DNA of 64,000 bases from a bacterium (GTDB taxonomy: Bacteria; Zhuqueibacterota; QNDG01), in assembly GCA_021158245.1 (NCBI GenBank), contig JAGGVB010000065.1, forward strand, positions 6,757-70,756, in the 5' to 3' direction. Shown here piece by piece: positions 1,974 to 24,254 of this stretch (positions within the stretch are counted from its first letter, which is position 1; every line of letters begins with the position of its first letter). Below the pieces are notes generated by a model. The model saw only the letters and a list, made by a program, of their open reading frames with translations. It did no database searches and was not told the DNA's origin. Both the position numbers and the translations under genes were made by a program.

Positions 1974-3080
1974 ATGAGAAAATCACACCTGTACAACAGC
2001 ATTATATTCCTTCCCCTCTTGTTCCTGATTCTGCTTCTTTCATATTGTGATTTGTTCCAGGGAGATTCCGATGACAATACAGACGATGGACTAAACTGGA
2101 TCACCGGGACATCATCATCTGTTGAAAAAGAGACATACTATGTCTCTGTAAGCGGAGATGACAGTTCAGACGGGAAAAGTATAGACAGACCGCTAAAGAC
2201 TCTTGCTGCTGCCTTAAGAAAAATTAAACCTGGCGGAAAAATCTTAATCCTGCCCGGAACATTTTATGAAAGCCTCGGTATGCAGAATTTTGGCAGCAAA
2301 ATTGATACAATTACAATTGCAGGGTTCAATGGACTGCCTGTTATAGATGGCGGAAATAAAAAGACCATGGGTATTTTTGCAACAGATTGCATAAATCTGA
2401 TTTTTCAGAACCTCCTGTTCCGGAATTTTACCGATGCGGGACTGGTTGTATCTGCATGTGACGGCATTATAATAAAGGATGTTATTGTAAAGGATAACGG
2501 ACATGCAGTAAAGTTGATTGATTGGGAATTTGAAGGATACGGAATTCATGTGGAAAATTCAAAACATGTGCTGATAGAAGGAGTCGAAGCGTATGGAAAC
2601 GGTCCTCATCCGAAAAAGACAAAAGATATTTTACTTGGCACAGGGATAAATACATACGGAAATGAGGATATAATCATACGAAATAATTCAAGTCATCACA
2701 ATACTGGCGGAGGTTTGTTGATTGAAGACAGTTATGACGTTTTGGCGGAAGGCAATATTCTATACGATAATGACTGTGATGCCAGCGCGGATGAATGGTG
2801 GGATGCAGGTTTATGGTTAGACGGCGGTAAAAACGTGACACTAAGGAACAATCTCTGCTATAATAATCTTGGCGCAGGTATTGAGGTCAGTGACGAAGAC
2901 CGGCAGTCTCCCACAGGATATGTTCTGGAAAACAATATTTGCAGAAATAACTATTTTGGTATATTTGTCTGGAATTTTGGTACGTTGGACTGGCCGGATC
3001 AAGAGGTGATTAAACTGTCAGGGAATCAGTTTTCAGATAATTTACGGAAAGATGTATGGATAGTGGACTGGATGGAATAG
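1974..3080 (+). CDS. right-handed parallel beta-helix repeat protein, pectin-lyase fold, probable lipoprotein
   Basis: N-terminal signal with a Cys (LLLSYC) followed by an Asp-rich linker. Repeated N-x-x-x-N and G-x-G-I motifs (NNSSHHNTGGGLLIED, NNLCYNNLGAGIEVSD) are typical of PbH1 repeats. Confidence 0.55.
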   Translation: MRKSHLYNSIIFLPLLFLILLLSYCDLFQGDSDDNTDDGLNWITGTSSSVEKETYYVSVSGDDSSDGKSIDRPLKTLAAALRKIKPGGKILILPGTFYESLGMQNFGSKIDTITIAGFNGLPVIDGGNKKTMGIFATDCINLIFQNLLFRNFTDAGLVVSACDGIIIKDVIVKDNGHAVKLIDWEFEGYGIHVENSKHVLIEGVEAYGNGPHPKKTKDILLGTGINTYGNEDIIIRNNSSHHNTGGGLLIEDSYDVLAEGNILYDNDCDASADEWWDAGLWLDGGKNVTLRNNLCYNNLGAGIEVSDEDRQSPTGYVLENNICRNNYFGIFVWNFGTLDWPDQEVIKLSGNQFSDNLRKDVWIVDWME

Positions 3081-3380: not shown

Positions 3381-5186
3381 ATGAGAAAAAAGAATATTCG
3401 TAATATAGCGATAATTGCACATGTGGATCACGGAAAAACCACACTTGTTGACGGAATGTTAAAACAGAGCGGCATATACCGTGACAATGAGACAATTACC
3501 GAACGGGTTATGGATTCCATGGATCTTGAACGTGAGAGAGGTATCACAATTATGGCTAAAAATACTGCTGTGCGGTATGGCAGTATTAAGATTAACATTG
3601 TTGACACACCTGGCCATGCGGACTTTGGCGGAGAAGTTGAACGGAGCCTCAATCTCGTTGACGGAGCAATACTCCTTGTTGATGCCAGCGAGGGCCCTCT
3701 GCCTCAAACACGTTTTGTTGTTAAAAAAGCTCTTGATAAAAAACTGCCGATCATTCTTGTAATTAACAAAATTGACCGCTCAGACCAGCGTATTGAAGAA
3801 GTAATTAATGAAGTTTATGACTTGTTTATTGATTTGGATGCTTCTGAAGATCAGATAGATTTTCCTGTTCTATACACCAATGCCAAGGCGGGAATAGCAC
3901 ATTTAAAGCACGGAGATGATTCAGAAAACCTCAAGCCGCTGTTTGAAACCATTATCAGTAAAATCCCCGGTCCGGAGACGGATGATGAGGCGATTCCCCA
4001 ATTTCTTGTCACAAACCTGTCTTATGATTCATATGTGGGCCAGATTGCAGTAGGCCGTCTTTTTAATGGTACTCTGGAACTGGGTAAGCAGTACAGCCAT
4101 TGTACAAAAAAGGAAGTAGTGAAAGGTGTCAAATTTTCAGCTCTCTATACTTTTGAAAATCTCAAACGCAAGGACACACAAAAAGCTGAAGCCGGTGATA
4201 TTATTGCTCTTGCAGGTGTTGATAATATTGAAATCGGTGATACTATCAGCGACCTGGAGAATCCAAAGCCTTTGGAGCGCATTCATATAGACGAACCTAC
4301 ACTCTCAATGATTTTTTATGTTAATAAAAGCCCTTTTGCCGGAACCGAAGGCCAATTCCTGACCTCACGCCATATCAGAGAAAGACTGTACAGAGAGACA
4401 CTTGGAAATATGGCCATAAATGTAGAAGATACTGAACGCCATGATGCATTTGAGGTTTTCGGCAGAGGCGAACTTCAGATGGCTGTACTTATTGAGACAA
4501 TGCGGCGTGAAGGATATGAATTTGCAGTATCAAAGCCCAAGGTCGTTACAAAAATAATTGACGATAAAAAATGCGAACCTGTAGAACATGTGTTTATTGA
4601 TGTTCCTGAAGTTTATGTGGGTGTAATAACTGAAAAACTCGCCGTACGTAAAGGCCGTATGATTAACATGGTTAACCACGGCCACGGCCGTTATGATCTT
4701 GAGTTCCTGATCCCCGCAAGAGGGCTCATAGGCTTCCGCAGCCAATTTCTAACAGACACCAAAGGTTCCGGTATAATGAATTCAATTCTTAACGGTTACG
4801 AACCCTGGTTCGGGCCAATACCGCAACGAACAACAGGCGCTCTTGTTGCTGACAGAGTAGGCCGTGTAACTAATTACGCCAGGTTGGCAATGGTAGACAG
4901 AGGCACCCTGTTTGTAAAAACAGGAACGCAAGTCTACGAGGGAATGATTATAGGCGAACGAAACCGCACTGCAGACCTGTACGTTAATATAACAAAAGAG
5001 AAAAAACTGACCAACATGCGCAGTTCAACTTCTGAAGCCACAGTAACATTAAGGCCTCCTACTATGCTGTCCCTTGATCAGGCAATTGAATTCATTGCAG
5101 AAGATGAGCTTGTAGAAGTTACACCGCAGAATATAAGGCTTGCAAAAATGATTCGGGAAAGAAAAAAACGAGGGCCAAAAATATAA
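3381..5186 (+). CDS. typA: translational GTPase TypA/BipA
   Basis: G1 motif [18 protein letters not shown] and NKIDR motifs, length 601 aa, and a C-terminal region typical of BipA. Confidence 0.95.
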
Positions 5187-5304
5187 ATCCTAACTTCAAC
5201 GCACATTAAAAATTAATTTGAATAGCAATTTTCTTTTGACAATGTAAATAAAAATTCACAACTCAGATTCCAATAAGCAATAACTAAAAAACGAAAAATC
5301 CATG

Positions 5305-5892
5305 TTAAAACGCCCTAAAATATTTTTTATCTGCAATATCTAACATTTGCTTATCGCCTTTACTGTCACCATATACATAAATACTGTTATATTCGGAAAG
5401 ATTATATTTTTCCTTAATTCTATTCAATTTTTCATTACCATAGCAATTTTTACCAGCAAGCTTCCCTGTTATTCTGTTTTTTTTTACTTCAAGCATAGTT
5501 GAAATAAGATCAATATCGTTCTTGCTGCACCATGCTTTTAAATAACACTCCAACGAAGCAGAAACAATCACAACTTTATGATTTTTCTGCTTATGCCACT
5601 TAATTTTTTCTATCGCCCTGCTATTTACAATTTTATCTATTTCATTTATTGAATATTGATTGGCTATGTTCTGTAAATAATCTATTTCCCAATTTTTAAA
5701 AAAATAGGCAATCAATTTTTCTTTTGCAATAAAATTCGGGATTATTTTCAGCTTATATGCTGCAAGCACAGGAGTCAATAAAATTAAACCTGAATAATAA
5801 TTCTTTTTGCCAACTGAATACTTTATAAAATCAGGGAAACTATCTTTCCCCGTTACAGTACCATCAAAATCAAAAAATGCTATATCTGTCAT
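5305..5892 (-). CDS. HAD-IB family phosphatase
   Basis: HAD motif I DFDGT at residues 8-12 and motif IV GDSKGD near the C-terminus. Last gene of the arabinose-type operon. Confidence 0.7.
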   Translation of the reverse strand: MTDIAFFDFDGTVTGKDSFPDFIKYSVGKKNYYSGLILLTPVLAAYKLKIIPNFIAKEKLIAYFFKNWEIDYLQNIANQYSINEIDKIVNSRAIEKIKWHKQKNHKVVIVSASLECYLKAWCSKNDIDLISTMLEVKKNRITGKLAGKNCYGNEKLNRIKEKYNLSEYNSIYVYGDSKGDKQMLDIADKKYFRAF

Positions 5893-5894
5893 GC

Positions 5895-7334
5895 CTACTT
5901 CTTTAGGTTATTCTTTTTATCGTCTTCCGGAGTATAGGAATACAATACACCGCATGCCTCATAATGGCTTATTTTATAAACCTGCCGCAGACCCTTATTT
6001 TTCAGTAACTCAGATTGTGCTATATTATCTCCATGTGCATCAAGCACCCAGAAAGAGTCAGGTAAAAAACCGCTGTTGTAATCCGACTGCAGGCTGTCAA
6101 TACTATATATATGAAAATCCATACCCAACATATCTGCATAAGTACTATACCCATACCCGTTGAAAACAATATCAAACATGGGTATTTTGTTATTAATTTT
6201 ATTGGCATCTACAAAAACTTCACGCCATTGCTCCTTGTTTATCTTATTATAATAGCCCATATAATATAATTGGAATATTGATAAAAAAACGATTATTGCA
6301 ACTATTATTTCGCCTTGTTTTTTTGTTCCAATTAAATAAACTCCAAATGCAAGGAACACTATGATTGCTGGAACGACAATAATGGTGTTTCTTACTGTCA
6401 GGATAGGGACTGATATGACGCTCTCTAAATAGGGCAAAATATACCCGCTCCCAATCCAGATTAAAAGTATTATTGTTTTAAATTTAAAATCTGTTTTATC
6501 ACGTTTATTAAACAGGGAAAAGAGACTAATTAATGAAACATAAAAATAAACTATAATTAAATAAACATTTCTAAAATAATACTTTATATAATACACAACA
6601 AAGGCAGGGGGAGGACAAATAATCCAAAAACTCTTTCTTGATAAATTTCTAAGTAAATTCTTTCTTAGTGGAAGCAAAGAAATAATAATTGCTAATAATG
6701 CAATTCCAGCAACTACAATTAAGTATTTTTGTTTTTCTTTTAATTTAACCCAATAAAGTGTATAAATAAAAAACTGCGCAATTAAAACATAAAACCCAAA
6801 ATAGTGCGTATAAATCATTAAAATAGTAATTAATAAATATAATGAAATATACTTTCTCTTAAATTTTTTGATAAATTTAAAGAAATATATAAAAGATAAA
6901 ACCGTTAGCAAAAACAATAAACTATAAGATCTTACTTCCTGAGAAAAATAGATTAAAAATACATTCGTTGAGGCAATAATTAATGAATATAAACCCACTT
7001 TCTTATTATAGATTTCTTTTCCCAAAAAATACATACAAATAACACCTAATGAACCAATAAAAGTGGACAAACTCCTTCCTGAAAATTCGGAAAATCCAAA
7101 AATTTTATACCAGCCATAAAGTATCAATTGATATAACGGTGGATGCACTCCAACGTTAACTAGTTCCTTCCACACACTTAATAATGTTTTATCCGGATTA
7201 CTTACAGTTGCACTATACAACTCATCTAACCAGTAACTTTGAAAAGTCAGACCTTTAAATCTTAGAATAATACCAAGAAATATAAAAATAAATAGAATTA
7301 TACTATTTTTTTTATCTTGTATAAATTTTGTCAT
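5895..7334 (-). CDS. GT-C fold membrane glycosyltransferase (ArnT/PMT, GT83/39-like); candidate lipid-linked arabinofuranosyltransferase
   Basis: About 12 TM segments. An acidic motif in the first periplasmic loop (YWLDELYSA) and an HPPLY motif are characteristic of the ArnT/PMT_2 family. Sits directly downstream of the DprE2-like gene. Confidence 0.65.
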   Translation of the reverse strand: MTKFIQDKKNSIILFIFIFLGIILRFKGLTFQSYWLDELYSATVSNPDKTLLSVWKELVNVGVHPPLYQLILYGWYKIFGFSEFSGRSLSTFIGSLGVICMYFLGKEIYNKKVGLYSLIIASTNVFLIYFSQEVRSYSLLFLLTVLSFIYFFKFIKKFKRKYISLYLLITILMIYTHYFGFYVLIAQFFIYTLYWVKLKEKQKYLIVVAGIALLAIIISLLPLRKNLLRNLSRKSFWIICPPPAFVVYYIKYYFRNVYLIIVYFYVSLISLFSLFNKRDKTDFKFKTIILLIWIGSGYILPYLESVISVPILTVRNTIIVVPAIIVFLAFGVYLIGTKKQGEIIVAIIVFLSIFQLYYMGYYNKINKEQWREVFVDANKINNKIPMFDIVFNGYGYSTYADMLGMDFHIYSIDSLQSDYNSGFLPDSFWVLDAHGDNIAQSELLKNKGLRQVYKISHYEACGVLYSYTPEDDKKNNLKK

Positions 7335-7357
7335 TACATTAGAAATTCTAAATTCTC

Positions 7358-8089
7358 CTAAATGTTCATTTTCTTAAATTGGGACTCAGGAATTAACTTA
7401 ATAACAAACATTATCCACTTCCAAAGCCATTTAGTATATAGAATGTTTGCACCTTTTTGCTGTGCCCGGAAAATATCCTTTGCAACATCTAAAGGTTCAG
7501 CTGTAATGGCCGCTGGCAAATCCATTCCTGCAGTCATCTTTGTGTTAACAAATCCGGGTTTTACTGTAAGTACCTGAACATTCGCTTCACAGAGCCTGTT
7601 TCGAAGCCCTGATAAATATGCAGTAAAACCTGCCTTAGCAGAACCATATGTATAATTGCTTTTCCTGCCTCTGTCACCTGCAACAGAACTTATACCGACA
7701 ATGAACCCTTTTTGCCGTTTTTCAAAATCATTGGCAATAATATTAAAAAGCCCGACAATACCCGTAAAATTAGTGCCAATAATAGTACGGACTTCATCAA
7801 AATTTTCCTGGGATTTTCCCTGGTCACCAAGATATCCGACTGCAGAAATTACCCCTTCGGGCTTTTCAGGCAAGCCCTCATAAAAACCGGATAAAGCACC
7901 ATATTTCAGCACATCAAATTCAATTAGCTTAACATTAACCTGCCATCGTATTTTTATATCTTTTGAAAATGGTTCCAGCTCATGCACATTTCGGGCAGCA
8001 AGATATAGATTGTATCCATTACTGGCATATGTGCGTGCAACTGCTTTTGCAATATCACTCTTAGCACCAACTATTAATATATAGCTCAT
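7358..8089 (-). CDS. SDR family oxidoreductase, DprE2-like (decaprenylphospho-2-keto-ribose reductase homolog)
   Basis: Rossmann motif IVGAKSDIAKAV and S...YxxxK (ISSVAGDRGRKSNYTYGSAKAG). The C-terminal tail resembles Rv3791. Start moved to the internal ATG at 8087-8089, which abuts the stop of the upstream gene (8091-8093). Confidence 0.75.
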   Translation of the reverse strand: MSYILIVGAKSDIAKAVARTYASNGYNLYLAARNVHELEPFSKDIKIRWQVNVKLIEFDVLKYGALSGFYEGLPEKPEGVISAVGYLGDQGKSQENFDEVRTIIGTNFTGIVGLFNIIANDFEKRQKGFIVGISSVAGDRGRKSNYTYGSAKAGFTAYLSGLRNRLCEANVQVLTVKPGFVNTKMTAGMDLPAAITAEPLDVAKDIFRAQQKGANILYTKWLWKWIMFVIKLIPESQFKKMNI

Positions 8090-8090
8090 A

Positions 8091-9389
8091 TTAAATACCC
8101 ACTCTTTTTGATTGTAGAGAATTAAATTTTTCATCAAGGCCGTATTTCTCCCGAACAGCCCTGAACTTATCAATGTGGGGATATCCTTTCTCAAATATTT
8201 CCCGGGTCACTCGTACATCCTTTGTAAGATAAATCCTTCCGCCATATTCAACAACTATTTTATCAAGCTCGTCCAACAGATCAAACAACCCTTTTTCAAT
8301 TTTAAAATCCAGTGCAAGACTGTATCCCTCAACAGGAAATGACAGATAATTTTCATTAGCTTTTCCATACAACTTCAACACCGCCAGAAAAGATCCTTTC
8401 CCTGATTTTGCAATGGTCCCGAGAATTCTTTCAAGGCCCTCATAACTTTTAGATTTTGGTAAAATAAACTGATACTGCGTAAATCCTTTTTTCCCATAAA
8501 TCCGATTCCAATTACGTATTGCATCCAATGGATAAAAAAATGTATCAACATCAACTGTTACTGGCTTTTTATGCTGCATAGCTTTTAAATAATAAAACCA
8601 GTTGAATGCTTTTACAGTATAGCGGTTAAGGGCAAATGACGGGAACATAAACGGAACATTTAGACTGAAAGGAGGTTTATAATCCAATTTGCCGTCTTTT
8701 TTAAAATCGCCTGCCATAAGAACACATCTACCGATTTTCTTCCCTTTTGCAAGGCAGTCTATCCACGCCACAGAATAGGGTACAGAATGATATTTCTCGA
8801 ATGCATCAAAGGTTTCTTTTAGATTTTTAGTCTTTACTGTTATCTGATCTATATATTTTGACTGCACTTTTTTTAATACAATTTCAGCATCTATAATAAT
8901 GCCTGTAAGGCCCATTCCTCCGCACGTAGCATTAAATAATTCAACATTCTGCTCTCTTGAACAAGTAACTATTTCACCTGTAGCAATCATCAAATTAAAC
9001 TCTTTTACACATGAACTGAAACATCCTTCCACATGGTGATTCTTTCCATGCACATCACTGGCAATGGCTCCTCCCACTGTTATTAATTTGGTGCCCGGGG
9101 TAACTGAAAGGAACCATCCCCGGGGAAGAAACACAGAAATGATATCCGCAAGAAGGACACCTGCCTGGCACCGCAGGACACCTGTATTCTCATCAAAATC
9201 CAGCATCAAGTTAAATAATCTTGTATCAATAACATTTTTACTGAGTGCACTATCGCCATAGCTCCTTCCATTACCATAGGGCATAATTTCATCATTATTA
9301 ATTACAATGTTTTTAAGGCCCTCAATATCCTCAAATGCAAATGCAGTGTTATCTATTGAGGGATAATTACCCCAGCTTCCAAGACTCAT
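8091..9389 (-). CDS. FAD-binding oxidase, DprE1-like (decaprenylphosphoryl-ribose 2'-oxidase homolog)
   Basis: Strong motif match to DprE1: YGNGRSYGDSA, PGTKLITVGGAIASDVHGKNHH, GFTQYQFILP and GGRIYLTKDVR. Confidence 0.8.
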   Translation of the reverse strand: MSLGSWGNYPSIDNTAFAFEDIEGLKNIVINNDEIMPYGNGRSYGDSALSKNVIDTRLFNLMLDFDENTGVLRCQAGVLLADIISVFLPRGWFLSVTPGTKLITVGGAIASDVHGKNHHVEGCFSSCVKEFNLMIATGEIVTCSREQNVELFNATCGGMGLTGIIIDAEIVLKKVQSKYIDQITVKTKNLKETFDAFEKYHSVPYSVAWIDCLAKGKKIGRCVLMAGDFKKDGKLDYKPPFSLNVPFMFPSFALNRYTVKAFNWFYYLKAMQHKKPVTVDVDTFFYPLDAIRNWNRIYGKKGFTQYQFILPKSKSYEGLERILGTIAKSGKGSFLAVLKLYGKANENYLSFPVEGYSLALDFKIEKGLFDLLDELDKIVVEYGGRIYLTKDVRVTREIFEKGYPHIDKFRAVREKYGLDEKFNSLQSKRVGI

Positions 9390-9787
9390 ACTTTCTCTTC
9401 CTTTCCGAAAACAATCCTTTTATCCATCCAATACTTAGCCAAATATCCAACACTCAACCCAACAACAGCACCGTAGTATTTGGCAGAACTATTCTTCAAT
9501 ACTAAATCAAAGCCTATTTCAGTGCACCAAAAAACGCCTGTTGTAACAACACCGTTAAGGGAATACAATATAAATTTTTTTACTGTATCAAAATGACTCC
9601 TTGAAGTGTAGTAAAATATATACCGTTTATCAAGTATATATTTAATAACAAAACCGGCAATTGTACCGCACGCCATTGCAGTATACAGACTGTACGCGCC
9701 GCCATAAGCCAATAGGACTAAATGCTGGGTTAAAATATTTACACCCATGGAGATAATAGCAAAAAATATATATTTAGCTACAATCAT
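9386..9787 (-). CDS. GtrA family membrane protein (lipid-linked sugar translocation; Rv3789-like)
   Basis: 133 aa with 4 predicted TM segments and the GtrA-like motif LDKRYIF. 4-bp overlaps with both neighbours. Confidence 0.6.
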   Translation of the reverse strand: MIVAKYIFFAIISMGVNILTQHLVLLAYGGAYSLYTAMACGTIAGFVIKYILDKRYIFYYTSRSHFDTVKKFILYSLNGVVTTGVFWCTEIGFDLVLKNSSAKYYGAVVGLSVGYLAKYWMDKRIVFGKEEKV

Positions 9788-10662
9788 AAATAGATAATCC
9801 AGATAAATGTTGCTATCCAGATCACCAGAGTTATCTGCATAAATCTATCTTTAAAAAGTACTTTGGTAGGCGACCCGCTGTCTTTAAAAACAAATGTAAT
9901 CTGCATGTAGCGCATTATTCCAAGTACTACAAAAAGGGCCGTCAAATATAAATGATTGCTGCCAAACCGCTCTATCACTTCAGTGGAAGTAGTATATAAT
10001 GTATAGGCCACAATCACTACCGAAGCCATTATAATCATGGTTGCGTTAATGAATTCAAGATTATAACCATCATTAGCCTTACGCATACTTTGGCCAGTAT
10101 CATTCAAAATCAACAGATCATCGCGGCGTTTTGCCAAGGCAATAAATAAGGCCAAAAGAAAAGTTAAAACTACAATCCATTTGGATAGCATAATTCCCGT
10201 AACAGCAGAACCTACAAAAAGCCGAAGCACAAAACCGATAGCAATTATTGTTACATCCATGATTGCTATTTTCTTAATATACAGGCTGTAGGCAATATTC
10301 ATAATGACATATACCCACAATATTATACAGGCATTCCATGACAGAGCAGCCATTACAACACTTCCCACACAAAAAAGCAGCACCATAAGCACAAATGCGT
10401 GTGCCGTTTTCACCGAACCTAATGCCAGGGGGCGGTATCTTTTGGTTGGGTGACGGCGGTCTTCTTCAATATCAAGATAGTCATTTAAGATATATATTGA
10501 ACTTGCTGCTAGTGAAAAAGCAGCAAATGCTACTATTGAATAAATAAATGAAATCTGATGTGTTATTTTAGCAGCAAAAAACAGGGGTAAAAAGATAAAC
10601 AAATTTTTAATATAGTGTTTAACTCTCAGCAGGCTTACATACTGTGACATTTTTTCTTTCAT
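9784..10662 (-). CDS. UbiA-family prenyltransferase; candidate decaprenyl-phosphate 5-phosphoribosyltransferase (Rv3806c-like)
   Basis: 292 aa polytopic membrane protein. Asp-rich motifs (NDYLDIEEDRRHP and KRRDDLLILND) are typical of the UbiA superfamily. First gene of the operon. Confidence 0.75.
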   Translation of the reverse strand: MKEKMSQYVSLLRVKHYIKNLFIFLPLFFAAKITHQISFIYSIVAFAAFSLAASSIYILNDYLDIEEDRRHPTKRYRPLALGSVKTAHAFVLMVLLFCVGSVVMAALSWNACIILWVYVIMNIAYSLYIKKIAIMDVTIIAIGFVLRLFVGSAVTGIMLSKWIVVLTFLLALFIALAKRRDDLLILNDTGQSMRKANDGYNLEFINATMIIMASVVIVAYTLYTTSTEVIERFGSNHLYLTALFVVLGIMRYMQITFVFKDSGSPTKVLFKDRFMQITLVIWIATFIWIIYL

Positions 10663-10976
10663 GTAATACCATTACTTGTTTATATATTATACACAACACA
10701 AACTATACCCATATTCAAGTTTGCTTCTATTATACTGGCGTCTATATAAAGTAGCTTATTGTATAAAACACAATTATAAATACAGAACAATGAAAGAATA
10801 TACTGTTTTTCGTGTTCATAAGCAACCAAATAGTACTATTCTCCGTGCATATATAACGTACACCGAGTTCACATCCACAACATAGTCATGAATTCGTGAG
10901 AATTGAAAGCTGGTTTCACACAAAGAAGATTAGGATACAATCTGTGTTGCATGAATATCCGTAATATCCGTTACTC

Positions 10977-12170
10977 TTATCCTTTATCAATAGCAGCATA
11001 ACATAACTGTTCTAACTCCTGAGCCTTGCGGTGCCATGAATACTGCTTCCCAATTTTTTTAAATGCTGCCATACCCATACGTTCAATACTATTTTTATCC
11101 GCTGCTAATTCTTTGACTGCCATGATCATTTCCCGGATACTTCCGGGTGTACATAATATGCCATCTCTGCCGTTTTCAATAACTTCAGCAATCTGACCTA
11201 TACGTGATGTTATAACCGCTTTACCGCACGCCATGTATTCGAAAATCTTAACCGGAGAATAATAAAAAAAATCAAGCGCAGGATAGGGAGCAATCACAAT
11301 ATCCATTGATGAAATATATGCCGGTACCAGCGTATGCTCTACATAACCGGTAAGAAATATCCTGTTTTCAAGGCGCTCGGTCCTTATAAAGGTTTTCAGA
11401 TCATCAAGCATAGGCCCTCCTGAACCAACCAGCAAGAATACCACATCCCGATTATCGGCAACCACCGCCTTGATAAGTTCAATCAGCTCGCTGACGCCAT
11501 GCCAATAATGAAACGACCCTACGAATCCTACTACTGTTTTACCCTGCAGCGGAAACCTGCGCTGCACTGCAGCAGGTGAAATAAATGGATTAAACCTCTT
11601 AAGGTCCGCCCCATTTGTAATCACATGCAGGTGATTTTCCGGAACCCCCCGTCCTACAAAGTATTGTTTCAAAGTATTTGATACACAAAAAGATATATCT
11701 GCGCTATTGATAAAATCGATTTCAAGCTTTTCAGCAAGCCCCCGTATACGCCTATACCGGGGACCGAAATTGTCAAGCTCGTATACAACAGGGCTATCAG
11801 CTTCAGCAATAATGGGGATATTTGCTTTTTTCCCAATTAAACGAGGAGAAAAAAGATACGACTCCATCCTTGCAATTAATATATCCGGTATATCCTTCTT
11901 AATTATGCTGCATTCTTCCCTGTAAAATCTGACATTTTTTACTATCTGATTAGTTTCATGCAGATAGCGGTGCAGATGTTTTTTAATAATAGTTCTAACA
12001 GGCTGCTCATTCCCCTCTTGTGCCGGAGAAGGCTCATGTTTTAGCCGCCAATATTTCTTTACAAAATGCCCTCTTGCTTCAAGGGCATTCATCAACTCCA
12101 GGCCTTTAATATATGACCCGATTGATATTCCTTTCAAGTCGTAAAGATAATTAAAATAATCTATTTTCAT
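10977..12170 (-). CDS. glycosyltransferase family 4 (GT-B)
   Basis: C-terminal GT4 signature (VGFVGSF... CGKAVITSRIGQIAEVIENGRDG). Confidence 0.75.
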   Translation of the reverse strand: MKIDYFNYLYDLKGISIGSYIKGLELMNALEARGHFVKKYWRLKHEPSPAQEGNEQPVRTIIKKHLHRYLHETNQIVKNVRFYREECSIIKKDIPDILIARMESYLFSPRLIGKKANIPIIAEADSPVVYELDNFGPRYRRIRGLAEKLEIDFINSADISFCVSNTLKQYFVGRGVPENHLHVITNGADLKRFNPFISPAAVQRRFPLQGKTVVGFVGSFHYWHGVSELIELIKAVVADNRDVVFLLVGSGGPMLDDLKTFIRTERLENRIFLTGYVEHTLVPAYISSMDIVIAPYPALDFFYYSPVKIFEYMACGKAVITSRIGQIAEVIENGRDGILCTPGSIREMIMAVKELAADKNSIERMGMAAFKKIGKQYSWHRKAQELEQLCYAAIDKG

Positions 12171-13213: not shown

Positions 13214-15139
13214 TTATTCTAATCTGATTACTTTTACTCCTGTGGGAGCTTCAGGCGGAGTTATATCTGAATCCCCAAGAGGCCCTCTGTAAACAAACTT
13301 TATTGCATCCGAAATAACCACACCGCTCGTATTGTTTGTTATTTTAACATATGCCTCCTTGCCTCTTGCAAAAGGCAAAATACCAAGGCTGTTCCACCTG
13401 CCGAAATTGGTTGTCTGATCAATATAAATAGTTGTATCAATTCCTGTACTCGCAGTATGAATAATTGCAGGCACATGGTTTGCAAGCTGCTGACTTGAAG
13501 GGTCCGTGCCCATATAACCGTGCCACTCATAAATTTCATACCTTCCTGCAAGCCCTATTGCAGGAGTATATGTTGCAACTTCTTCACCGCTTCCCGGAGC
13601 ACTCCATGCAAATCCGTTTTTCTGATATGGGCCATAATCTCTGTTATCATAAACCGCATAAAATTTTTTCCCATTAGTTGACATAACCCACCCTCCTGTA
13701 TAACTGACAGGATCAGATCCCGGTGATGTCTGATTGTCGGGATTATTATCAACAATTATGGGCGTTACAAAAACTTTTTTACTTCTGAAAAGCATAGTAC
13801 CGTCACCAAATACTTCCAGTTCAGGCCAACCTGCTTTTGCTGCATCTCCCCAAAGGACCAGAGGATTACTGTCAGTGATCTCCTCTCCGTTATTAAAAAC
13901 AGGATCCTGGCCTCCCTTGATTCTGTAATATCTGGATCCGGCAATAGGATCAAGAGCAGATAGATCAGATGCTGTAATTGTCTGCTGTACACCTGACGAA
14001 TTTACAACAGAAACGCCGTTATCAAAAAATCTTATCCACACACCGTCAGCATAAGGAGTTGCCGCAACAGGCTTACCTTCAATTTTCAACATATCACTCC
14101 TCGGATAACCAAGCTGGCCTTTTGCTTCAAACTCATCATAAAAATAAATATTTCCGTGGTGGCCTATCTGATTGCCCTCATCAACATAAAAATATGCTGA
14201 TGTCAAAAGACAGCTTGCAAAACCATATCTTACAGCTCTATAATTATTTTTATACGGAGTTACAGGAAAATTCCTGTTATAAAAAGAATGAGAAGAATTG
14301 AAAAGCATTATTTTCGGCTCTTTGGTATTTGTTTTAGTATCATTATAATTCGTTCTCCACCACTTCCACGGGCCGTTATAAATTGGCCAGTCTTCAAAAC
14401 ATGCACCATTAATATTCGACCAAAGATCCCAGCCTTTTCCTCCTATCTGAACAACTACATACTTTACTCCCGGAATTTGATACTCTCTTTTATGGAAATC
14501 TTTTAACCCCATTTCCCATAAAGTCTGAACCGAATCAGCTCCCCACTCCTGAGTGTCTACAATACCATTACCGTTCAAATCACCTTTTGTTCTTACATTA
14601 TACCCGGGGCCGATCCACCACCAATCATGGAAAACACCATCATAAACTGAAAAATCAATATCATTCGGCAAAAATCTTAGAATATAATCAACATAAGTCT
14701 GAAGGCCATTCCCGTCACCAAGATCAACTTTCGGACAAAGTGGAGTAATATTCATAATATGTGCATTATCCCATAGTTCACATCTGTTACCATCCACATC
14801 ATGCCAATACCACTCTTCAGGCAAATCTCCGAGAGTATGCCCTCTGTTAAAATCAATAATGCAGTCGCTTGTTGCCAGTAAAATCACATTTGGATTTGCC
14901 GCTTTGTAATCATGGGCTCTGCTGTTGCCCGGAGGATATGCTATAATATCAAAATCTTTTAATATATCCACGCAAGCCTCAGTCTGTCCGCTGAAAGTAA
15001 AAATGCCAAGTCTGGGATATGGCGGGTTTAAATCCTGTGTAAAAGCAGTGCTATTGGAAAACAATACCGCTCCAACAGTAATAAATACAATTATATTTGA
15101 TAGAATGATATGATTCTTATAATTCTTCTGGCGGTACAT
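13214..15139 (-). CDS. large secreted hypothetical protein, possibly glycan-active
   Basis: N-terminal signal/anchor, 641 aa, Trp-rich, no identifiable catalytic motif. The C-terminus ends DITPPEAPTGVKV, a motif shared with the neighbouring 615-aa protein. Confidence 0.5.
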   Translation of the reverse strand: MYRQKNYKNHIILSNIIVFITVGAVLFSNSTAFTQDLNPPYPRLGIFTFSGQTEACVDILKDFDIIAYPPGNSRAHDYKAANPNVILLATSDCIIDFNRGHTLGDLPEEWYWHDVDGNRCELWDNAHIMNITPLCPKVDLGDGNGLQTYVDYILRFLPNDIDFSVYDGVFHDWWWIGPGYNVRTKGDLNGNGIVDTQEWGADSVQTLWEMGLKDFHKREYQIPGVKYVVVQIGGKGWDLWSNINGACFEDWPIYNGPWKWWRTNYNDTKTNTKEPKIMLFNSSHSFYNRNFPVTPYKNNYRAVRYGFASCLLTSAYFYVDEGNQIGHHGNIYFYDEFEAKGQLGYPRSDMLKIEGKPVAATPYADGVWIRFFDNGVSVVNSSGVQQTITASDLSALDPIAGSRYYRIKGGQDPVFNNGEEITDSNPLVLWGDAAKAGWPELEVFGDGTMLFRSKKVFVTPIIVDNNPDNQTSPGSDPVSYTGGWVMSTNGKKFYAVYDNRDYGPYQKNGFAWSAPGSGEEVATYTPAIGLAGRYEIYEWHGYMGTDPSSQQLANHVPAIIHTASTGIDTTIYIDQTTNFGRWNSLGILPFARGKEAYVKITNNTSGVVISDAIKFVYRGPLGDSDITPPEAPTGVKVIRLE

Positions 15140-16287: not shown

Positions 16288-18135
16288 CTATTCCTGTTTT
16301 TGATTTGCAGTAACACCAGTAGGAATCCTCGGAGGTGTATTGTCAGCAGGAGCATTACTTAAAGTTTTAGTCCAATTGTCAAAATCATACTCAATCTGTT
16401 TCCCGTGTTTTCTAACAATCATCTTATCTCCTGACCAGCGCACCAAATATTTACCATTATTATCAATTGCTTCAAGGCGTTTAAAAGGAAAAGTGAATAC
16501 AAATCCAAAATCACCAATGCCGCCCTTTTTCACAATAGAAACAAAGGTATCAGTACCCGGAAGCCTATTATAGCCAATCCAGTCACCCTTGCTTGTAATA
16601 TACTTACCTGTTCCAAGATCAGCATTCGCAAATATTGCCGCTTCAAAATCATCAAGGCTGGCATAATCCACACCTTCTATGGCTACTTCTAACGCACTGG
16701 TATTAACATCAGTACGAATCCTAATGGCAACCATTGTCCTTCCCTCTTTTAAAAATCTCCAATTACCAATAGTTTGATCTACATCAAAAGCATTGCTGCG
16801 CAGGGCAACATGAAAAAAGGTGGCCTTAATAAACATTGCATTTTTGTACTGGAACCCCTGTTCTCCTGTTGTAAGATAGTTCATGTAATAAACTGGATGT
16901 GAGACATCCTCCCCTACGTCTTTTGTATTTATCCACAATCTGAAAGGTATTCCAGGCCTGCCGTAGCTTCCCGGTTCATCATCGGATTTAATACATAGCT
17001 GCCAATTCGATGTTGCACCGCCGCCCAGGGAATAAAATTTTGTAACATAATCCCATTTACCCGTATTTACGGCCCTTGTAATACTCCTGTTATATTCCAT
17101 ATTTATATGATAATAATTATCCGGTTCATCACTTAAATCACCAATATCAAAGATAATATCAGGTAACCTGTAATCAGAAAAATAAATACTCCTTGAAGGT
17201 TCATGTGAAGGCCTTGGCCCCCCCCAGAATATATCCCAGTAAAATCGGCCCCACCCTTTTCTGTAAACTTCCTCATATGATCGTCCAAGCTCACCACCCC
17301 ACTGCTGACCACCATAATCCATTACTGAATCAATAAGATAGAAATCAATAAATATCTCAGCTTTACGCTTCATAACAGGGTCTTCCGAAAACTTTTGAAG
17401 AGCACTTATGCTGTGAATAATACACCAGGAATAAACAGGGCTGTCAAATTCATTATTACCAGATTTTACCCATTTATCAAGAAGATAATTAATATAAGCT
17501 TCACTTAACTCAAATTCATTGTATCTCTCGCCTATAGAATAAAGTTTTCCATTCCACATAAAAGGAATAACATTTTGACTGGGTGGAGGATCAGTTGAAT
17601 AGTTGATATAAATATTTTTATGATATTGGCTGTATAGATATCTTGCAACCCAATCTGCAATTTGACTATTTGGAGCACCTGGTGCAACATTGTTTGATCT
17701 GTACACTCCATCATATAAATTTTGTATAAATTGCTTATCACTCGGATAGATAACATCACCATAATCGTAGAGAATCCATAAAAGCATTACAGAAGATTGC
17801 CATTCTCCATAATGCCAGGCATGCGCATATGGGGCATAACCTTCAGATGTCCACAATGACCCCCAGCTTATGATTATATTATGTACAATATCAAGTGCTG
17901 GTTTTGAAACACCATCAATATCTGTAACATAGTAGGTATTGCCGTCCAGTGTACCATTCTTCATTTTTTCCAGCCACGCCCATATTCTTTCATGAAAACT
18001 ACGGCACTGTTCACCCATTGTATCAAGATATTCCTGCTTTTTCTGATCAAAAACTGTCTGAGCAGGTAATGAACCTGTAATGATGAATAGAAGGAACAAA
18101 ATAATTATCAGCAAAAATTTCCTTTTCTTAAACAT
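16288..18135 (-). CDS. large secreted hypothetical protein
   Basis: Type I signal peptide (SLPAQ|T), 615 aa. C-terminus DNTPPRIPTGV. Contains an in-frame G8 tract. Confidence 0.5.
   Translation of the reverse strand: MFKKRKFLLIIILFLLFIITGSLPAQTVFDQKKQEYLDTMGEQCRSFHERIWAWLEKMKNGTLDGNTYYVTDIDGVSKPALDIVHNIIISWGSLWTSEGYAPYAHAWHYGEWQSSVMLLWILYDYGDVIYPSDKQFIQNLYDGVYRSNNVAPGAPNSQIADWVARYLYSQYHKNIYINYSTDPPPSQNVIPFMWNGKLYSIGERYNEFELSEAYINYLLDKWVKSGNNEFDSPVYSWCIIHSISALQKFSEDPVMKRKAEIFIDFYLIDSVMDYGGQQWGGELGRSYEEVYRKGWGRFYWDIFWGGPRPSHEPSRSIYFSDYRLPDIIFDIGDLSDEPDNYYHINMEYNRSITRAVNTGKWDYVTKFYSLGGGATSNWQLCIKSDDEPGSYGRPGIPFRLWINTKDVGEDVSHPVYYMNYLTTGEQGFQYKNAMFIKATFFHVALRSNAFDVDQTIGNWRFLKEGRTMVAIRIRTDVNTSALEVAIEGVDYASLDDFEAAIFANADLGTGKYITSKGDWIGYNRLPGTDTFVSIVKKGGIGDFGFVFTFPFKRLEAIDNNGKYLVRWSGDKMIVRKHGKQIEYDFDNWTKTLSNAPADNTPPRIPTGVTANQKQE
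17228..17235 (-). repeat. G8 homopolymer tract (C8 on plus strand) inside a coding region
   Basis: Eight consecutive C at 17228-17235, which on the coding strand read TGG GGG GGG CCA (W-G-G-P). Confidence 0.9.
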
Positions 18136-19431: not shown

Positions 19432-21207
19432 CTATTCTCTTTTAGATCCTTTTTCTTCCACCAGAAAACCTCCGATGGCAAGATACTCAAGATGCCCCAT
19501 GTTAAAGGCTCGTACAGCATCATCAGGAGAACATACTATGGGTTCTTCATGCATATTAAAACTTGTATTAATGATTGTTGGTATACCAGTACGTTTTTCA
19601 TAAGCCTTTAATATCATATAATAGCTTTCATTAACTTCTCTTCTTATAAGCTGCGGACGTGCTGTTTTATCAACATGAACAGTTGCAGGGCATGTATTTT
19701 CCATCTTGTCTGTACAATCAAAAGTAATAGTCATATATTCAGCAGGAAAATAATTTTCTTTAAGATTCCTGTACTGCTTTTCTGCTTCCTCATAAATTGT
19801 TACCGGTGCAAACGGCATAAATTCTGTACGTTTGAGCTTATGATTCAGCCAGTCATTAACAGTAGGATCTGTAGACTGATAAAGAATGGATCGATTCCCC
19901 AATGCCCTTGGCCCGTACTCCATTCTTCCGTTAAAACGCGCAACAACTTTGCCCTGTGCCAGCAGTTCACCTATCTTGTCTTCGATATTATCATAGAACT
20001 TGTATGGATTTTTTGAGTTCTGCAGACTCTTTTCAATATCCTCCCTGGAATATTCAGGGCCGAGATATACGTCTTCAATTTTTCTATTCTCTATTTCATT
20101 CCATTCTCCGGGATTCTGCTCATAATATGACCACAATGCAGCACCTGCACTCAATCCGCCATCGCCCATAGACGGGAAAATAAAAACAGAAGAAACTCCA
20201 TCCAGCTCTGCTACTCTTTGATTAACCTTTACATTGGCAAAAACGCCTCCTGCCATACGAACATCAATTTCATTACGATCTTTGAGTTCCTGATCCACAT
20301 AAAATTTAACAAATTCTGCAACTGACTTTTCAGTAATATCCTGAATACCCGCAGCGATATCTTCCCGCGAATAATTTTCTAACAGACCATCCATTGCTTT
20401 AACTAATTTTGGATAGTTACTCCTCTGCGGATAGGCATGTTGTAAAACTTTTTTAGAAAGCTCATAATTGAATTCATGGCCTTCCATTCTAAAAAATTTT
20501 CTGTAAATATCCTCTGTATTATGCGGATTTCCATAAGCAGCCAGCCCTGTTATTTTACCCTCATGCCGGTTAGGCTTAAATCCGAGCATCCAGGTAATAA
20601 GGTTATAAAACAAACCGATACTGTGAAAACTTGGCACTTTTGCACGCTGCTCCAATTTTCCGTCCCTACCCCGGAAAATTGTTCCGGCAAGTCCGTCCCC
20701 CTGTCCATCAAGTGTAACAACAAGAGCATCTGATTTCCCGCCTGTATAAAAGGCTGATGCAGCATGAGCTGTATGGTGATTTACCAAATCAATCGGCTTA
20801 TCATCCAACCCGTATTTTTTTAATAACTTCTTTAGCTTTATAATCCTCCTTTGATTATAAAAATAGGGATAGAACAAAAAATACTTGTCCCACCTTATTG
20901 ATTTACTAAACAAAGAATGAATAATCCATCTCGGTTCTTTCTCTTTTAAAAATAAATCCTTAAGAACATATTTCAAAAGATCGGCCGGACGCTCAATTGC
21001 AATTGCAATTCTATCAATATTAGTACTGTCAGATCCAGTCATTTCTAAGACTTTCTCTATGCTTCTCCACGGAGGTCCGTCTGATGTATTCCCATTGTGA
21101 AACTTAATCCGCGAAAGCCTCTCTTCTTCTATAGCTGCAATAATTCTGCCATCTTCTACAACTGCGCTGCTGCAATTGTGATCATCAAAAATACCGAGAA
21201 TTCTCAA
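19432..21207 (-). CDS. carbamoyltransferase, NodU/CmcH family
   Basis: N-terminal MRILGI...HNCSSAVVEDGRIIAAIEEERLSRIKFH and length 591 aa are typical of the O-carbamoyltransferase family. Confidence 0.8.
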   Translation of the reverse strand: MRILGIFDDHNCSSAVVEDGRIIAAIEEERLSRIKFHNGNTSDGPPWRSIEKVLEMTGSDSTNIDRIAIAIERPADLLKYVLKDLFLKEKEPRWIIHSLFSKSIRWDKYFLFYPYFYNQRRIIKLKKLLKKYGLDDKPIDLVNHHTAHAASAFYTGGKSDALVVTLDGQGDGLAGTIFRGRDGKLEQRAKVPSFHSIGLFYNLITWMLGFKPNRHEGKITGLAAYGNPHNTEDIYRKFFRMEGHEFNYELSKKVLQHAYPQRSNYPKLVKAMDGLLENYSREDIAAGIQDITEKSVAEFVKFYVDQELKDRNEIDVRMAGGVFANVKVNQRVAELDGVSSVFIFPSMGDGGLSAGAALWSYYEQNPGEWNEIENRKIEDVYLGPEYSREDIEKSLQNSKNPYKFYDNIEDKIGELLAQGKVVARFNGRMEYGPRALGNRSILYQSTDPTVNDWLNHKLKRTEFMPFAPVTIYEEAEKQYRNLKENYFPAEYMTITFDCTDKMENTCPATVHVDKTARPQLIRREVNESYYMILKAYEKRTGIPTIINTSFNMHEEPIVCSPDDAVRAFNMGHLEYLAIGGFLVEEKGSKRE

Positions 21208-21261: not shown

Positions 21262-22629
21262 TTATTGCTTATTCAATATCTTTTTCTTCTTCAGGTGTTC
21301 TATTTTCATCCTTTTTTCTGCTCTAACCTGAAGCTTTTCAGCCGATAGAATAATTCCTGTTGATAAGCCAAGCTGATACAATATTTGATATGCATGTATA
21401 TCAGGACTGAATGTAAAAACTATTATTATTGCTAAAATACCCCCCAAAACACCAAGAACCGTATTTATTATAAAACTTGAATATAGCTTACGTGTCAAAA
21501 TCCTAATCCCTACAACAAATATGCTGATTAAATACCATATAATAAGGATTGCTCCTATAAGACCCATTTCTGCTGCAATTAAAAGATATGAGTTATGAAC
21601 CATAAATGCAAAAACCTTTGCATAATCATTAGCTTTTTCTGTATTTGTCATGTAATCCCATGAAACAAGTTCATAATGCCCCAAACCAACTCCTAACACC
21701 GGATGTGCTTTAATTATTCGTCCCGCAATTCGAAACTGCGGAAATCGAACTTCATAAGAAGCGTCCCTTTGCGCACCGAACTGACTGATAATTTTATCAC
21801 CATAACGAATTGTAAAAGCCATAAAAAATATCAGGATTACAGGGAAAGCCCATTTAATTTGACTTTTAAACCTCTTGTTAAAAAGACTAATGACAAATAA
21901 TAGCCCCAACGTAATACTAAAAGCAATCCACGGAGCCCTTCCGTATGTAGTAAAAAATGCAATGGTTCCCAGGATAAATGCACTGCCTGCAATAAAATAA
22001 ATTTTTCTTTTCTCCGGTTTGTAATAGAGAAAAAGCCTGAAGGCCACCGGCAGAGTCATAGCAAGATAATTAGCATAAAAGCTAGTCACGAAAAAGGTGC
22101 CCATGGTTCTCCATTTGATTCTGGCAAACGAGCGTTCTCCAAGATACCAAATTCCTATTGCGCCAAACCTCCATTGATATATCCCTATTAAACTCTCAAC
22201 AATAATCCCGATAATCATCGCATAAACTATTATTTTAAAATCTTTTAATGAGTGTACATTATTTACAACTGCAATAATAACAAGATACAGCCTCAAATAT
22301 TTTGATAACTCCGCGAGTACCCACCCATGTTGAAGAGCAAAAAACGATGATACAATTCCTGCAATCAGGAATAAAATCAAGGGTAAAGTCACTGGCATTA
22401 CTGAATATTTGAATTTATATTTTGAAACTATTCCTGTAAGAAGAAGACTGATTACCGGTAAATCCGCAAGCATGAGTCCTGTATAATGATAGAATATCCA
22501 CCCTGAAGAAAATATGTACAGAAACCCTACGAGAAATAGAAAATATTTTCCTCTGTCTCTGACAAATAACGGCACTATACCAAAAAATACAGTTGAAATA
22601 AAAACAAATACTAACTTTGCAGAACTCAT
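21262..22629 (-). CDS. O-antigen ligase/polymerase family membrane protein (Wzy/WaaL-like)
   Basis: 455 aa with about 10-12 TM segments and a large periplasmic loop. Typical neighbour of Wzx in Wzy-dependent loci. No sharper motif. Confidence 0.55.
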   Translation of the reverse strand: MSSAKLVFVFISTVFFGIVPLFVRDRGKYFLFLVGFLYIFSSGWIFYHYTGLMLADLPVISLLLTGIVSKYKFKYSVMPVTLPLILFLIAGIVSSFFALQHGWVLAELSKYLRLYLVIIAVVNNVHSLKDFKIIVYAMIIGIIVESLIGIYQWRFGAIGIWYLGERSFARIKWRTMGTFFVTSFYANYLAMTLPVAFRLFLYYKPEKRKIYFIAGSAFILGTIAFFTTYGRAPWIAFSITLGLLFVISLFNKRFKSQIKWAFPVILIFFMAFTIRYGDKIISQFGAQRDASYEVRFPQFRIAGRIIKAHPVLGVGLGHYELVSWDYMTNTEKANDYAKVFAFMVHNSYLLIAAEMGLIGAILIIWYLISIFVVGIRILTRKLYSSFIINTVLGVLGGILAIIIVFTFSPDIHAYQILYQLGLSTGIILSAEKLQVRAEKRMKIEHLKKKKILNKQ

Positions 22630-23900: not shown

Positions 23901-24024
23901 TTCTTTATGCCCTTTCTAATAAAATACAATTACAAAAGTTTGTAATTAATTAATTCTTGTCAATGTCTTTAAACTATAAGCCAAAATTGTAGTTCAAAAT
24001 TATTTATATTATAACTCCAGAATA

Positions 24025-24246: not shown

Positions 24247-24254
24247 TAACCTCT

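Follow-up and report, generated by a model that had tools for sequence, protein, structure and literature searches.

Described systems and the cassette of the window

D-Arabinofuranose (D-Araf) is best known from the mycobacterial cell wall, and two Gram-negative systems, those of Pseudomonas aeruginosa and Citrobacter youngae, provide precedents for lipid-linked pentofuranoses in other envelopes. Here, we describe a cassette of six minus-strand genes (positions 5305–10662) in a 64,000-nt stretch of contig JAGGVB010000065.1 (assembly GCA_021158245.1), hereafter the window, from an uncultured Calditrichota-like bacterium. The genes encode, in order, a UbiA-family prenyltransferase, a GtrA protein, a DprE1-like flavin adenine dinucleotide (FAD) oxidase, a DprE2-like short-chain dehydrogenase/reductase (SDR), a GT-C glycosyltransferase and a HAD phosphatase. 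Our reading, to which we assign a probability of about 0.7, is that these six genes make a lipid-linked D-arabinofuranose donor and decorate a surface glycan with it after export. If this is true, the bacterium puts D-arabinofuranose on a surface polysaccharide by means of a compact, self-contained cassette.

In P. aeruginosa Pa5196/PA7, the genes 6246 (UbiA), 6247 (GtrA-like), 6248 (DprE1) and 6249 (DprE2) are needed for D-Araf pilin glycosylation reconstituted in Escherichia coli, while 6245 encodes an Rv3807c-type phosphatase and DprE1 is cytoplasmic (10.1101/2020.04.19.049825). The cassette of the window resembles this system (PsPA7_6245–6249 with TfpW/TfpX) in its core order, UbiA-GtrA-DprE1-DprE2, in its Gram-negative host and in the proposed combination of cytoplasmic donor synthesis with a periplasmic GT-C; moreover, the Pseudomonas loci that we recovered carry DprE1 homologues approximately 50% identical to the protein of the window. 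The two differ in their phosphatases, 6245 being an Rv3807c homologue and that of the window a HAD protein, and in the placing of the GT-C, as the gene for TfpW (646 aa, TPR domain present) lies apart from this set, beside the pilin gene, and TfpW has a protein acceptor, whereas the GT-C gene of the window lies in the operon. In the Pseudomonas-type loci that we recovered, the UbiA gene is also divergently transcribed, and its product is approximately 31% identical to the UbiA protein of the window.

The second precedent comes from biochemical work by Kelly, Duong, Nothof, Lowary and Whitfield (PNAS 2024) on C. youngae ORF15, a single protein that joins a HAD phosphatase domain to a UbiA-type synthase; they showed that it makes polyprenyl-P-ribofuranose from phosphoribosyl pyrophosphate (PRPP) (PMC11127046). 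The C. youngae GT-C (ORF12), which founded family GT136 and was reported to lack similarity to existing glycosyltransferase (GT) families, adds the sugar to polymerised O antigen; an auxiliary epimerase alters the pentose, the GT-C takes ribofuranose (Ribf) or xylofuranose (Xylf) donors, and an unrelated SDR epimerase decides which sugar is used (PMC11127046). According to the same study, Gram-negative glycans that contain Araf come with DprE1/E2 homologues, those with Xylf come with a different epimerase, and the strategy is widespread (PMC11127046). The C. youngae O1/O2 genes ORF12–15 are like the cassette of the window in combining a UbiA-type synthase, a HAD-family 5′-phosphatase and a GT-C(A) transferase within a polysaccharide locus, with auxiliary epimerases that set the pentose; the small membrane transporter and the GT-C of C. 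youngae act after polymerisation, as the GtrA protein and the GT-C of the window would. They differ in that the HAD protein is the N-terminal domain of ORF15 and not a separate gene product, the transporter is the ArnE/F-like ORF14 and not a GtrA-type candidate, and ORF12 carries a C-terminal carbohydrate-binding module, whereas the GT-C of the window is annotated as PMT_2/‘GT39’ and has no such module. The settings are likewise distinct: an enterobacterial O antigen in C. youngae, and a Wzx/Wzy exopolysaccharide (EPS) locus in a Calditrichota-like host in the window.

The mycobacterial pathway to decaprenylphosphoryl arabinose shares the reaction logic proposed here and has homologous enzymes in the cassette for four steps (UbiA against Rv3806c, 30% identity; DprE1 against Rv3790, 37%; DprE2 against Rv3791, 30%; and a GtrA-family protein, as Rv3789). 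It departs from the cassette in its C50 lipid, where that of the window is probably C55, in its PAP2 phosphatase Rv3807c, for which a HAD-IB phosphatase would stand in here, and in its transferases Emb, AftA, AftB and AftD, which are unrelated in sequence to the GT-C of the window, itself structurally nearer to PMT and ArnT. The product is cell-wall arabinan in mycobacteria and presumably a non-essential surface polysaccharide here. Finally, the Gtr (GtrA/GtrB/Gtr*) systems of O-antigen glucosylation and the ArnC/ArnEF/ArnT systems of lipid A modification share with the cassette a cytoplasmic polyprenyl-monophosphate donor, a small GtrA- or SMR-type protein and a periplasmic GT-C, and ArnT is among the best structural matches of the GT-C of the window; however, their donor is built from a nucleotide sugar by a GT2 enzyme, whereas that of the window would come from PRPP via UbiA and then be epimerised on the lipid.

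Given the match with the P. aeruginosa and C. youngae precedents, we regard the cassette as a further member of a described type of system, of which two or three examples have been studied biochemically. If our reading is right, what the window adds is of modest value: a phylum and an architecture, with a separate HAD gene, a GtrA gene and an in-operon PMT_2-type GT-C gene, and a candidate new arabinofuranosyltransferase lineage for glycoengineering. It opens no new question, since our survey found many copies of the module and the idea has been in print since 2024.

Predicted proteins of the cassette

The gene order, the family assignments, the catalytic motifs, the fold of the GT-C, the conserved cassette and the gene fusions are observations. 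From them we infer, as follows, which sugar is made, on which lipid it travels, what accepts it and what the HAD, GtrA and GT-C proteins do. UbiA would join PRPP to a polyprenyl phosphate (probably C55, undecaprenyl phosphate) to give polyprenyl-P-ribose-5-P, from which the soluble HAD-IB phosphatase would strip the 5′-phosphate, leaving polyprenyl-P-ribose. The DprE1-like flavoenzyme would then oxidise C2′ to a 2′-keto intermediate and the DprE2-like SDR would reduce the keto group, giving polyprenyl-P-D-Araf. GtrA would help to move the donor across the membrane or to hand it over, and the GT-C of the operon would move Araf onto a periplasmic acceptor, most likely the polysaccharide of the adjoining Wzx/Wzy locus. 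The preliminary description of this DNA had called the donor pathway a decaprenyl one; homologues of the pathway enzymes are present, but the name is doubtful, as the expected carrier in such bacteria is undecaprenyl phosphate (PMC11127046). That the cassette is a lipid-linked pentofuranose pathway, whichever the pentose, is a conclusion in which we have high confidence.

The UbiA protein (9784–10662, minus strand, 292 aa) matched Pfam UbiA (PF01040; 75.5 bits, cut-off 34.2) and, at 227 bits, the NCBIfam model of decaprenyl-phosphate phosphoribosyltransferase (NF008977), while the ubiA, cyoE and chlG models returned no more than 31 bits. Its only matches among PDB chains were to Rv3806c (8j8j/8j8k; 128 bits, 30% identity), so that it groups, as had been expected, with the phosphoribosyltransferases and not with the MenA/UbiA quinone enzymes. 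In the alignment with Rv3806c, the motif NDYLDIEEDRRHPTKRYRP pairs with NDVRDVEADREHPTKRFRP; the loop II motif NDxxDxxxD is kept as NDYLDIEED, followed by RRHPTKRYRP (HPTKRxRP). The NDxxDxxxD loop is needed for activity in both Rv3806c and C. youngae ORF15 (PMC11127046). This protein is most likely a polyprenyl-phosphate 5-phosphoribosyltransferase (PPPRS, Rv3806c-like) and would catalyse the first committed step.

The HAD protein (5305–5892, minus strand, 195 aa) matched Pfam HAD (PF12710; 114 bits), TIGR01490 (125.1 bits, cut-off 98.3) and TIGR01488 (89.2 bits, cut-off 45), and both motif I (FFDFDGTVT; DxDGT) and motif IV (GDSKGD; GDxxxD) are intact. Some related loci have no separate HAD gene and encode instead a UbiA protein of approximately 480 aa with an N-terminal PF12710 HAD domain. 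Profile-profile comparison of the stand-alone HAD family with the fused domain (hhalign) gave a probability of 97.4% (E value 1.2e-11). The suggestion that a HAD phosphatase stands in for Rv3807c is thus backed by the HAD-UbiA fusions, and we consider this soluble HAD-IB protein a candidate polyprenyl-P-ribose-5-P 5′-phosphatase, functionally equivalent to Rv3807c and, in C. youngae ORF15, to the PRP domain.

The DprE1-like protein (8091–9389, minus strand, 432 aa) scored 60.7 bits with FAD_binding_4 (PF01565) and 396.8 bits with the NCBIfam DprE1 model (NF053785), the next family reaching 64 bits. Its match to solved DprE1 in the PDB was 262 bits, with 37% identity over 409 residues. Aligned to Mycobacterium smegmatis DprE1, it keeps HGKNHH, QYQ (FTQYQF) and the catalytic lysine (GGRIYLTKD), which we take to be the equivalent of M. 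tuberculosis Lys418. By these features the protein is most likely an FAD-dependent polyprenyl-P-ribose 2′-oxidase. Two neighbouring active-site positions differ, that of Asn385 being Ser and that of Cys387 being Ala (GYSLALDF against GWNVCVDF). In DprE1, Cys387 is the covalent target of benzothiazinones and is dispensable for catalysis; with Ala at this position, the target residue is absent and the protein has no bearing on anti-tuberculosis drug targets.

The SDR (7358–8089, minus strand, 243 aa) scored 100.6 bits with adh_short and 346 bits with NCBIfam PRK07102 (‘SDR family oxidoreductase’), above the cut-off of 267. Its best PDB match was DprE2 (21gq_C; 90 bits, 30% identity), ahead of a runner-up at 62 bits. 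The Ser-Tyr-Lys motif of classical SDRs is kept, SSVAG...YGSAKAG aligning with SSAAG...YGSTKAG, and the motif ISSVAGDRGRKSNYTYGSAKAG likewise aligns with DprE2. On this likeness, the enzyme would act on the 2-keto intermediate and yield the arabino form by reduction. All the DprE1 and DprE2 motifs quoted in the preliminary description are therefore present and aligned with the mycobacterial proteins, and the two enzymes fall, as it had proposed, outside the generic vanillyl-alcohol-oxidase and FabG clades (397 against 64 bits for the oxidase; DprE2 as the best solved relative of the SDR).

The GtrA protein (9386–9787, minus strand, 133 aa) matched NCBIfam gtrA_1 (145.8 bits, cut-off 50) and Pfam GtrA_DPMS_TM (32 bits). 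We propose that it is a flippase or scaffold for the lipid-linked pentofuranose, the counterpart of Rv3789 and PsPA7_6247.

The GT-C protein (5895–7334, minus strand, 479 aa) has a Pfam PMT_2 match and is named GT39 by NCBI. The predicted structure, a confident model, shows a GT-C(A) fold in which the first helix is followed by a conserved Asp-Glu pair. Homologues share W35, D37, E38, the P65-P66 pair, R135 and R371, and these residues are consistent with the acidic first-loop catalytic site of enzymes of the PMT/ArnT type. In fold comparisons, the model scored 29.1 with Pmt4, 26.1 with ALG12, 25.0 with AglB and 24.6 with ArnT (Foldseek TM 0.64), followed by AftA (20.9), AftB (17.2), AftD (16.9) and EmbA (10.8). 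We regard the protein as a candidate periplasmic arabinofuranosyltransferase, its link to arabinose being drawn solely from gene context. The preliminary description had already proposed this role. A sequence search of PDB chains returned no match at E ≤ 1, to Emb and Aft or to any other chain.

Distribution of the cassette and alternative readings

Relatives of the DprE1 homologue are numerous. A word-indexed search returned more than 8,000, the best 120 of which are all approximately 70% identical, and an exhaustive search (E ≤ 1e-30) gave 1,810 clusters at 50% identity. In contigs of one genome per species, searched with the DprE1 homologue as query, at least 595 stretches were matched, and these represent many non-actinobacterial phyla, with members among others in Campylobacterota, Desulfobacterota, Alpha- and Gammaproteobacteria (Pseudomonas, Vibrio, Methylococcus and Thiothrix), Bacteroidota (many Chitinophagaceae), Chlorobiota, Ignavibacteriales, Calditrichales, Kiritimatiellales, Anaerolineae, Nitrospirae and Holophagae. 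The notion in the preliminary description that such gene sets occur only sporadically outside Actinobacteria has to be abandoned in view of the at least 595 stretches and 1,810 clusters, and a 2024 paper already describes systems of this type as widespread (PMC11127046).

Gene context was counted in the 80 best loci of the at least 595 matched stretches. The SDR gene shares the strand of the DprE1 homologue and is no more than 5 kb away from it in 74/80, and it lies no more than 200 nt downstream in 69/80. A UbiA homologue lies within 5 kb in 62 of the 80, the HAD protein is encoded in the operon in 29/80, and GtrA occupies the position that it has in the window in 28/80. Natural DprE1-SDR fusions of approximately 680–700 aa, with the SDR at the C-terminus, are present in public data (P0373, P0388 and P0401); together with the HAD-UbiA fusions and the conserved order, they support the assignment of these genes to one pathway. 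The identical six-gene cassette recurs in a syntenic relative (L085; GT-C 48% and DprE1 74% identical) and in an unrelated EPS locus (L087; GT-C 42% identical), and a third locus (L088) combines a 37%-identical GT-C with UbiA-GtrA-DprE1-SDR.

These data bear on whether the cassette might be a chance neighbourhood of generic enzymes, namely a quinone or heme prenyltransferase, a flavoenzyme of the vanillyl-alcohol-oxidase type, a FabG-like reductase and an unrelated phosphatase. In favour of this reading, each of the six Pfam families is large and multifunctional, and three of the proteins score under curated equivalog cut-offs. However, the specific models win by wide margins (227 against 31 bits and 397 against 64 bits), DprE2 is the top solved match of the SDR, gene order is conserved across phyla and fusions tie the partners together, so we give this explanation a negligible chance. 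The generic-enzyme reading (MenA/UbiA, vanillyl-alcohol oxidase and FabG) is effectively refuted by the score margins and the conserved context.

The best genome matches of the DprE1 protein were in Campylobacterota and Desulfobacterota (69% identity, against 62% for a Calditrichales genome, L018), and more generally the cassette proteins are 65–69% identical to homologues from Campylobacterota, Desulfobacterota, Methylococcaceae and Midichloriaceae, against 62% for the Calditrichales genome. The G+C content is 28.5% for the GT-C gene and 28.7% for the HAD gene, compared with 38.5% for the SDR gene, 37.3% for the DprE1-like gene, 36.4% for the UbiA gene and 37.9% for the window, a contrast that suggests that the distal third of the operon is of mosaic origin. 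The closeness of the DprE1 protein to those of other phyla rather than to that of Calditrichales, in a host that BipA places near Calditrichia/KSB1, and the low G+C content of the GT-C and HAD genes are signs that the cassette may be mobile, and the comparison of identities points to horizontal spread.

Several observations weigh against the reading of the six genes as an arabinofuranose donor pathway with its own transferase. The UbiA protein, at 227 bits, falls narrowly under the NF008977 equivalog cut-off of 234 (best of three models), the DprE1-like protein, at 396.8 bits, is under the NF053785 equivalog cut-off of 500, and the SDR reaches 157 bits on the DprE2 model (NF053786), under the equivalog cut-off of 250. 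As these cut-offs are NCBI's actinobacterial ones, we read the three proteins as sister-clade homologues and not as strict orthologues. The SDR moreover belongs to a separate family (PRK07102), and the stereochemistry of the reduction is therefore assumed. Compared pairwise by phmmer, the HAD protein had no significant match to the fused N-terminal domains, so that the link between the HAD protein and the phosphatase domain of the HAD-UbiA fusions is visible by profile-profile comparison only. Whether GtrA proteins act as flippases is disputed in the model systems too (10.1101/2020.04.19.049825). As for the GT-C, its fold is nearer to PMT, ArnT and oligosaccharyltransferases than to Aft and Emb, and it had no match among PDB chains at E ≤ 1, though structures of Emb, AftA, AftB and AftD are in the PDB; together, these two results place it outside the mycobacterial arabinosyltransferase families. 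Homologues of the GT-C with no more than 34% identity adjoin genes for a GtrB-type GT2 and GtrA, as in hexose systems, or stand alone, and one homologue with 41% identity has no cassette nearby, so that membership of this family leaves the donor unfixed.

Some of these points, if pressed, would favour a pentofuranose other than D-Araf, either a different 2′-modified or epimeric sugar or polyprenyl-P-ribofuranose as the true donor, with DprE1 and the SDR acting on another substrate. The placing of the SDR in PRK07102 and not in the DprE2 equivalog, the differing neighbours in the DprE1 active site (Ser for Asn385 and Ala for Cys387) and the C. youngae GT-C, which takes Ribf or Xylf while an unrelated SDR epimerase sets the sugar, are all compatible with such a donor. 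Nonetheless, oxidation at C2′ followed by reduction can give only the ribo or the arabino configuration, and nothing would be gained by regenerating the ribo form. In most loci, DprE1 and the SDR are kept as neighbours or as a fusion, known Gram-negative glycans with Araf carry DprE1/E2 homologues whereas Xylf systems use another epimerase, and the P. aeruginosa homologues, which belong to the same clade (approximately 50% identity by genus-level loci), yield D-Araf. We therefore hold another pentose to be distinctly improbable and retain D-Araf as the sugar of the donor.

The gene between the SDR and HAD genes is the variable part of these loci. Neither tblastn nor phmmer found an orthologue of the GT-C in the 80 related loci, and elsewhere this slot is occupied by unrelated polytopic membrane proteins, with a PMT_2 match in L008, a DUF6798 match in L010 and no Pfam family in L006, L011 and L015. 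Since unrelated proteins fill the slot, the transferase behaves like the variable, acceptor-specific component of Gtr-type systems. Membership of the GT-C in CAZy family GT136 is unlikely, judged by description (PMT_2/GT39 against ORF12). Tentatively, and at slightly less than even odds, we suggest that the PMT_2-type GT-C lineage (homologues with at least approximately 37% identity) is an uncharacterised family of D-arabinofuranosyltransferases, apart from Emb/Aft, TfpW and GT136 (the latter two by description), which together with the stand-alone HAD-IB phosphatase would belong to a self-contained six-gene cassette for Araf decoration, passed horizontally among distant Gram-negative phyla and joined to varied EPS loci.

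With regard to the acceptor, we lean towards the EPS of the adjoining locus, and the chief alternative keeps the donor pathway and replaces the acceptor by a protein (a pilin, an S-layer or another envelope protein, as for TfpW) or by lipid A or the lipopolysaccharide core (as for ArnT and Rgt). The closest solved folds of the GT-C, protein O-mannosyltransferases, oligosaccharyltransferases and ArnT, agree with such targets, as do the separate 314-bp gap upstream of the cassette and its position at the very edge of the locus; pilin glycosylation is the best-studied Gram-negative case, and the cassette of L088 adjoins genes for SLH-domain proteins and not a Wzx/Wzy locus. Conversely, the cassettes of the window, L085 and L087 all lie within or attached to Wzx/Wzy/Wzc loci, a pilin or S-layer gene is not adjacent in the window, and the C. 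youngae precedent decorates a polymerised polysaccharide. A protein or lipid acceptor is, on balance, unlikely, and the Wzx/Wzy locus beside the cassette is the probable source of the acceptor glycan.

Operon organisation and the adjoining polysaccharide locus

All six minus-strand open reading frames (ORFs) of the preliminary description are present at the coordinates given above. For the SDR, we took the ATG at 8089 as the start because a protein that begins there fits the family models from its first residue and agrees with gene calls on public contigs; the mechanical ORF list carries the frame to a TTG at 8194. The tight packing that had been described was found, with ATGA 4-bp overlaps at two junctions (UbiA/GtrA and GtrA/DprE1), but the 1-nt overlaps were not, the DprE1/SDR junction being a 1-nt spacer without overlap. 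The remaining junctions are spacers of 23 nt (SDR/GT-C) and 2 nt (GT-C/HAD). Four of these five junctions probably allow translational coupling and, as judged from this arrangement, the six genes of 5305–10662 most likely form one transcription unit.

Upstream, a non-coding gap of 314 bp (10663–10976; G+C content 31.8%) separates the UbiA gene from a GT4 gene and is the presumed promoter region of the unit. A sigma-70 scan of 5100–11100 returned 28 promoter-like sites against 29.3 expected from shuffles, with a consensus that may not be that of the host, and the scan of the same interval gave no convincing terminator after the HAD gene; an Rfam scan of the whole window returned zero matches. 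The downstream neighbour is a convergent BipA/TypA gene, whose product has 76–79% identity with homologues from Calditrichia, Calditrichaeota and candidate division KSB1. The window also matches metagenome contigs, among them those of JGI 3300016457. An actinobacterial origin of the window is ruled out by these relatives and by the 38% G+C content, in agreement with the preliminary description.

On the far side of the gap, Pfam scans delimited a Wzx/Wzy-dependent polysaccharide locus (10977–59874, minus strand) with genes for Wza (59026–59874), Wzc (56675–58990), a WbaP-like initiating transferase (54245–55702), Wzx (29164–30633) and Wzy (21262–22629), all on the minus strand. Around a dozen GT2 and GT4 enzymes and aminotransferase, dehydratase and epimerase genes are also part of the locus, and no gene between 5305 and 59874 lies on the plus strand. 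The cassette hence does lie, as originally described, at the end of a surface-glycan locus of approximately 50 kb, which we put at approximately 55 kb.

The locus includes three further PMT_2 GT-C genes (22626–23900, 27450–29177 and 35265–36965, minus strand), the products of which are no more than 30% identical to each other and to the GT-C of the cassette, over the N-terminal 150 residues or so only. The gene at 27450–29177 abuts a GT2 gene (26736–27449) whose best NCBIfam matches are polyprenyl-phospho-GalNAc synthase PpgS, AglJ and dolichyl-P hexose transferase. Judging by the extra GT-C genes and this neighbouring GT2 gene, the glycan seems to receive several periplasmic decorations. In the Calditrichales genome (L018), a GT-C most like that of 22626–23900 is encoded directly 3′ of the Araf cassette. 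By analogy with the Araf transferases of mycobacteria, the other GT-Cs of the locus might share the Araf donor.

A second patch of low G+C content (approximately 32–33%) extends from 22001 to 26000 and covers the 5′ end of the Wzy gene, a GT-C gene, a gene for a flippase-like protein and a GT2 gene. The flippase-like protein (24255–25301), of the LPG_synthase_TM / ‘flippase-like domain’ type, is encoded near GT2 and GT-C genes, and a fragment of the LPG_synthase_TM family is found 5′ of the Araf cassette in the unrelated EPS locus (L087, 2702–3049). Proteins of this family may be alternative translocators of lipid-linked sugars.

Closer to the cassette, a 641-aa protein (13214–15139, minus strand) has a C-terminal Golvesin_C as its sole domain and is kept beside a methyltransferase gene, a GT4 gene and the cassette in the syntenic relative (L085, 1–780), and a 615-aa ORF between two GT4 genes (16288–18135, minus strand) matched no Pfam family at E ≤ 0.01. 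Some unusual accessory enzymes are encoded at 41912–44011, 44008–45843, 48624–50327, 51098–52984 and 19432–21207 and include an NAD-epimerase/GFO_IDH_MocA fusion, a GlpD-like FAD oxidoreductase with DAO_C and a carbamoyltransferase. The locus also encodes two asparagine-synthase homologues, for which uronic-acid amidation is a possible role.

Outside the locus, on the plus strand, lie genes for a DUF3187 protein (793–1812) and a right-handed beta-helix protein reminiscent of NosD/DUF1565 (1974–3080). The N-terminus of the latter (…LLLSYC…) resembles a lipoprotein signal, and the protein could be a polysaccharide lyase or hydrolase.

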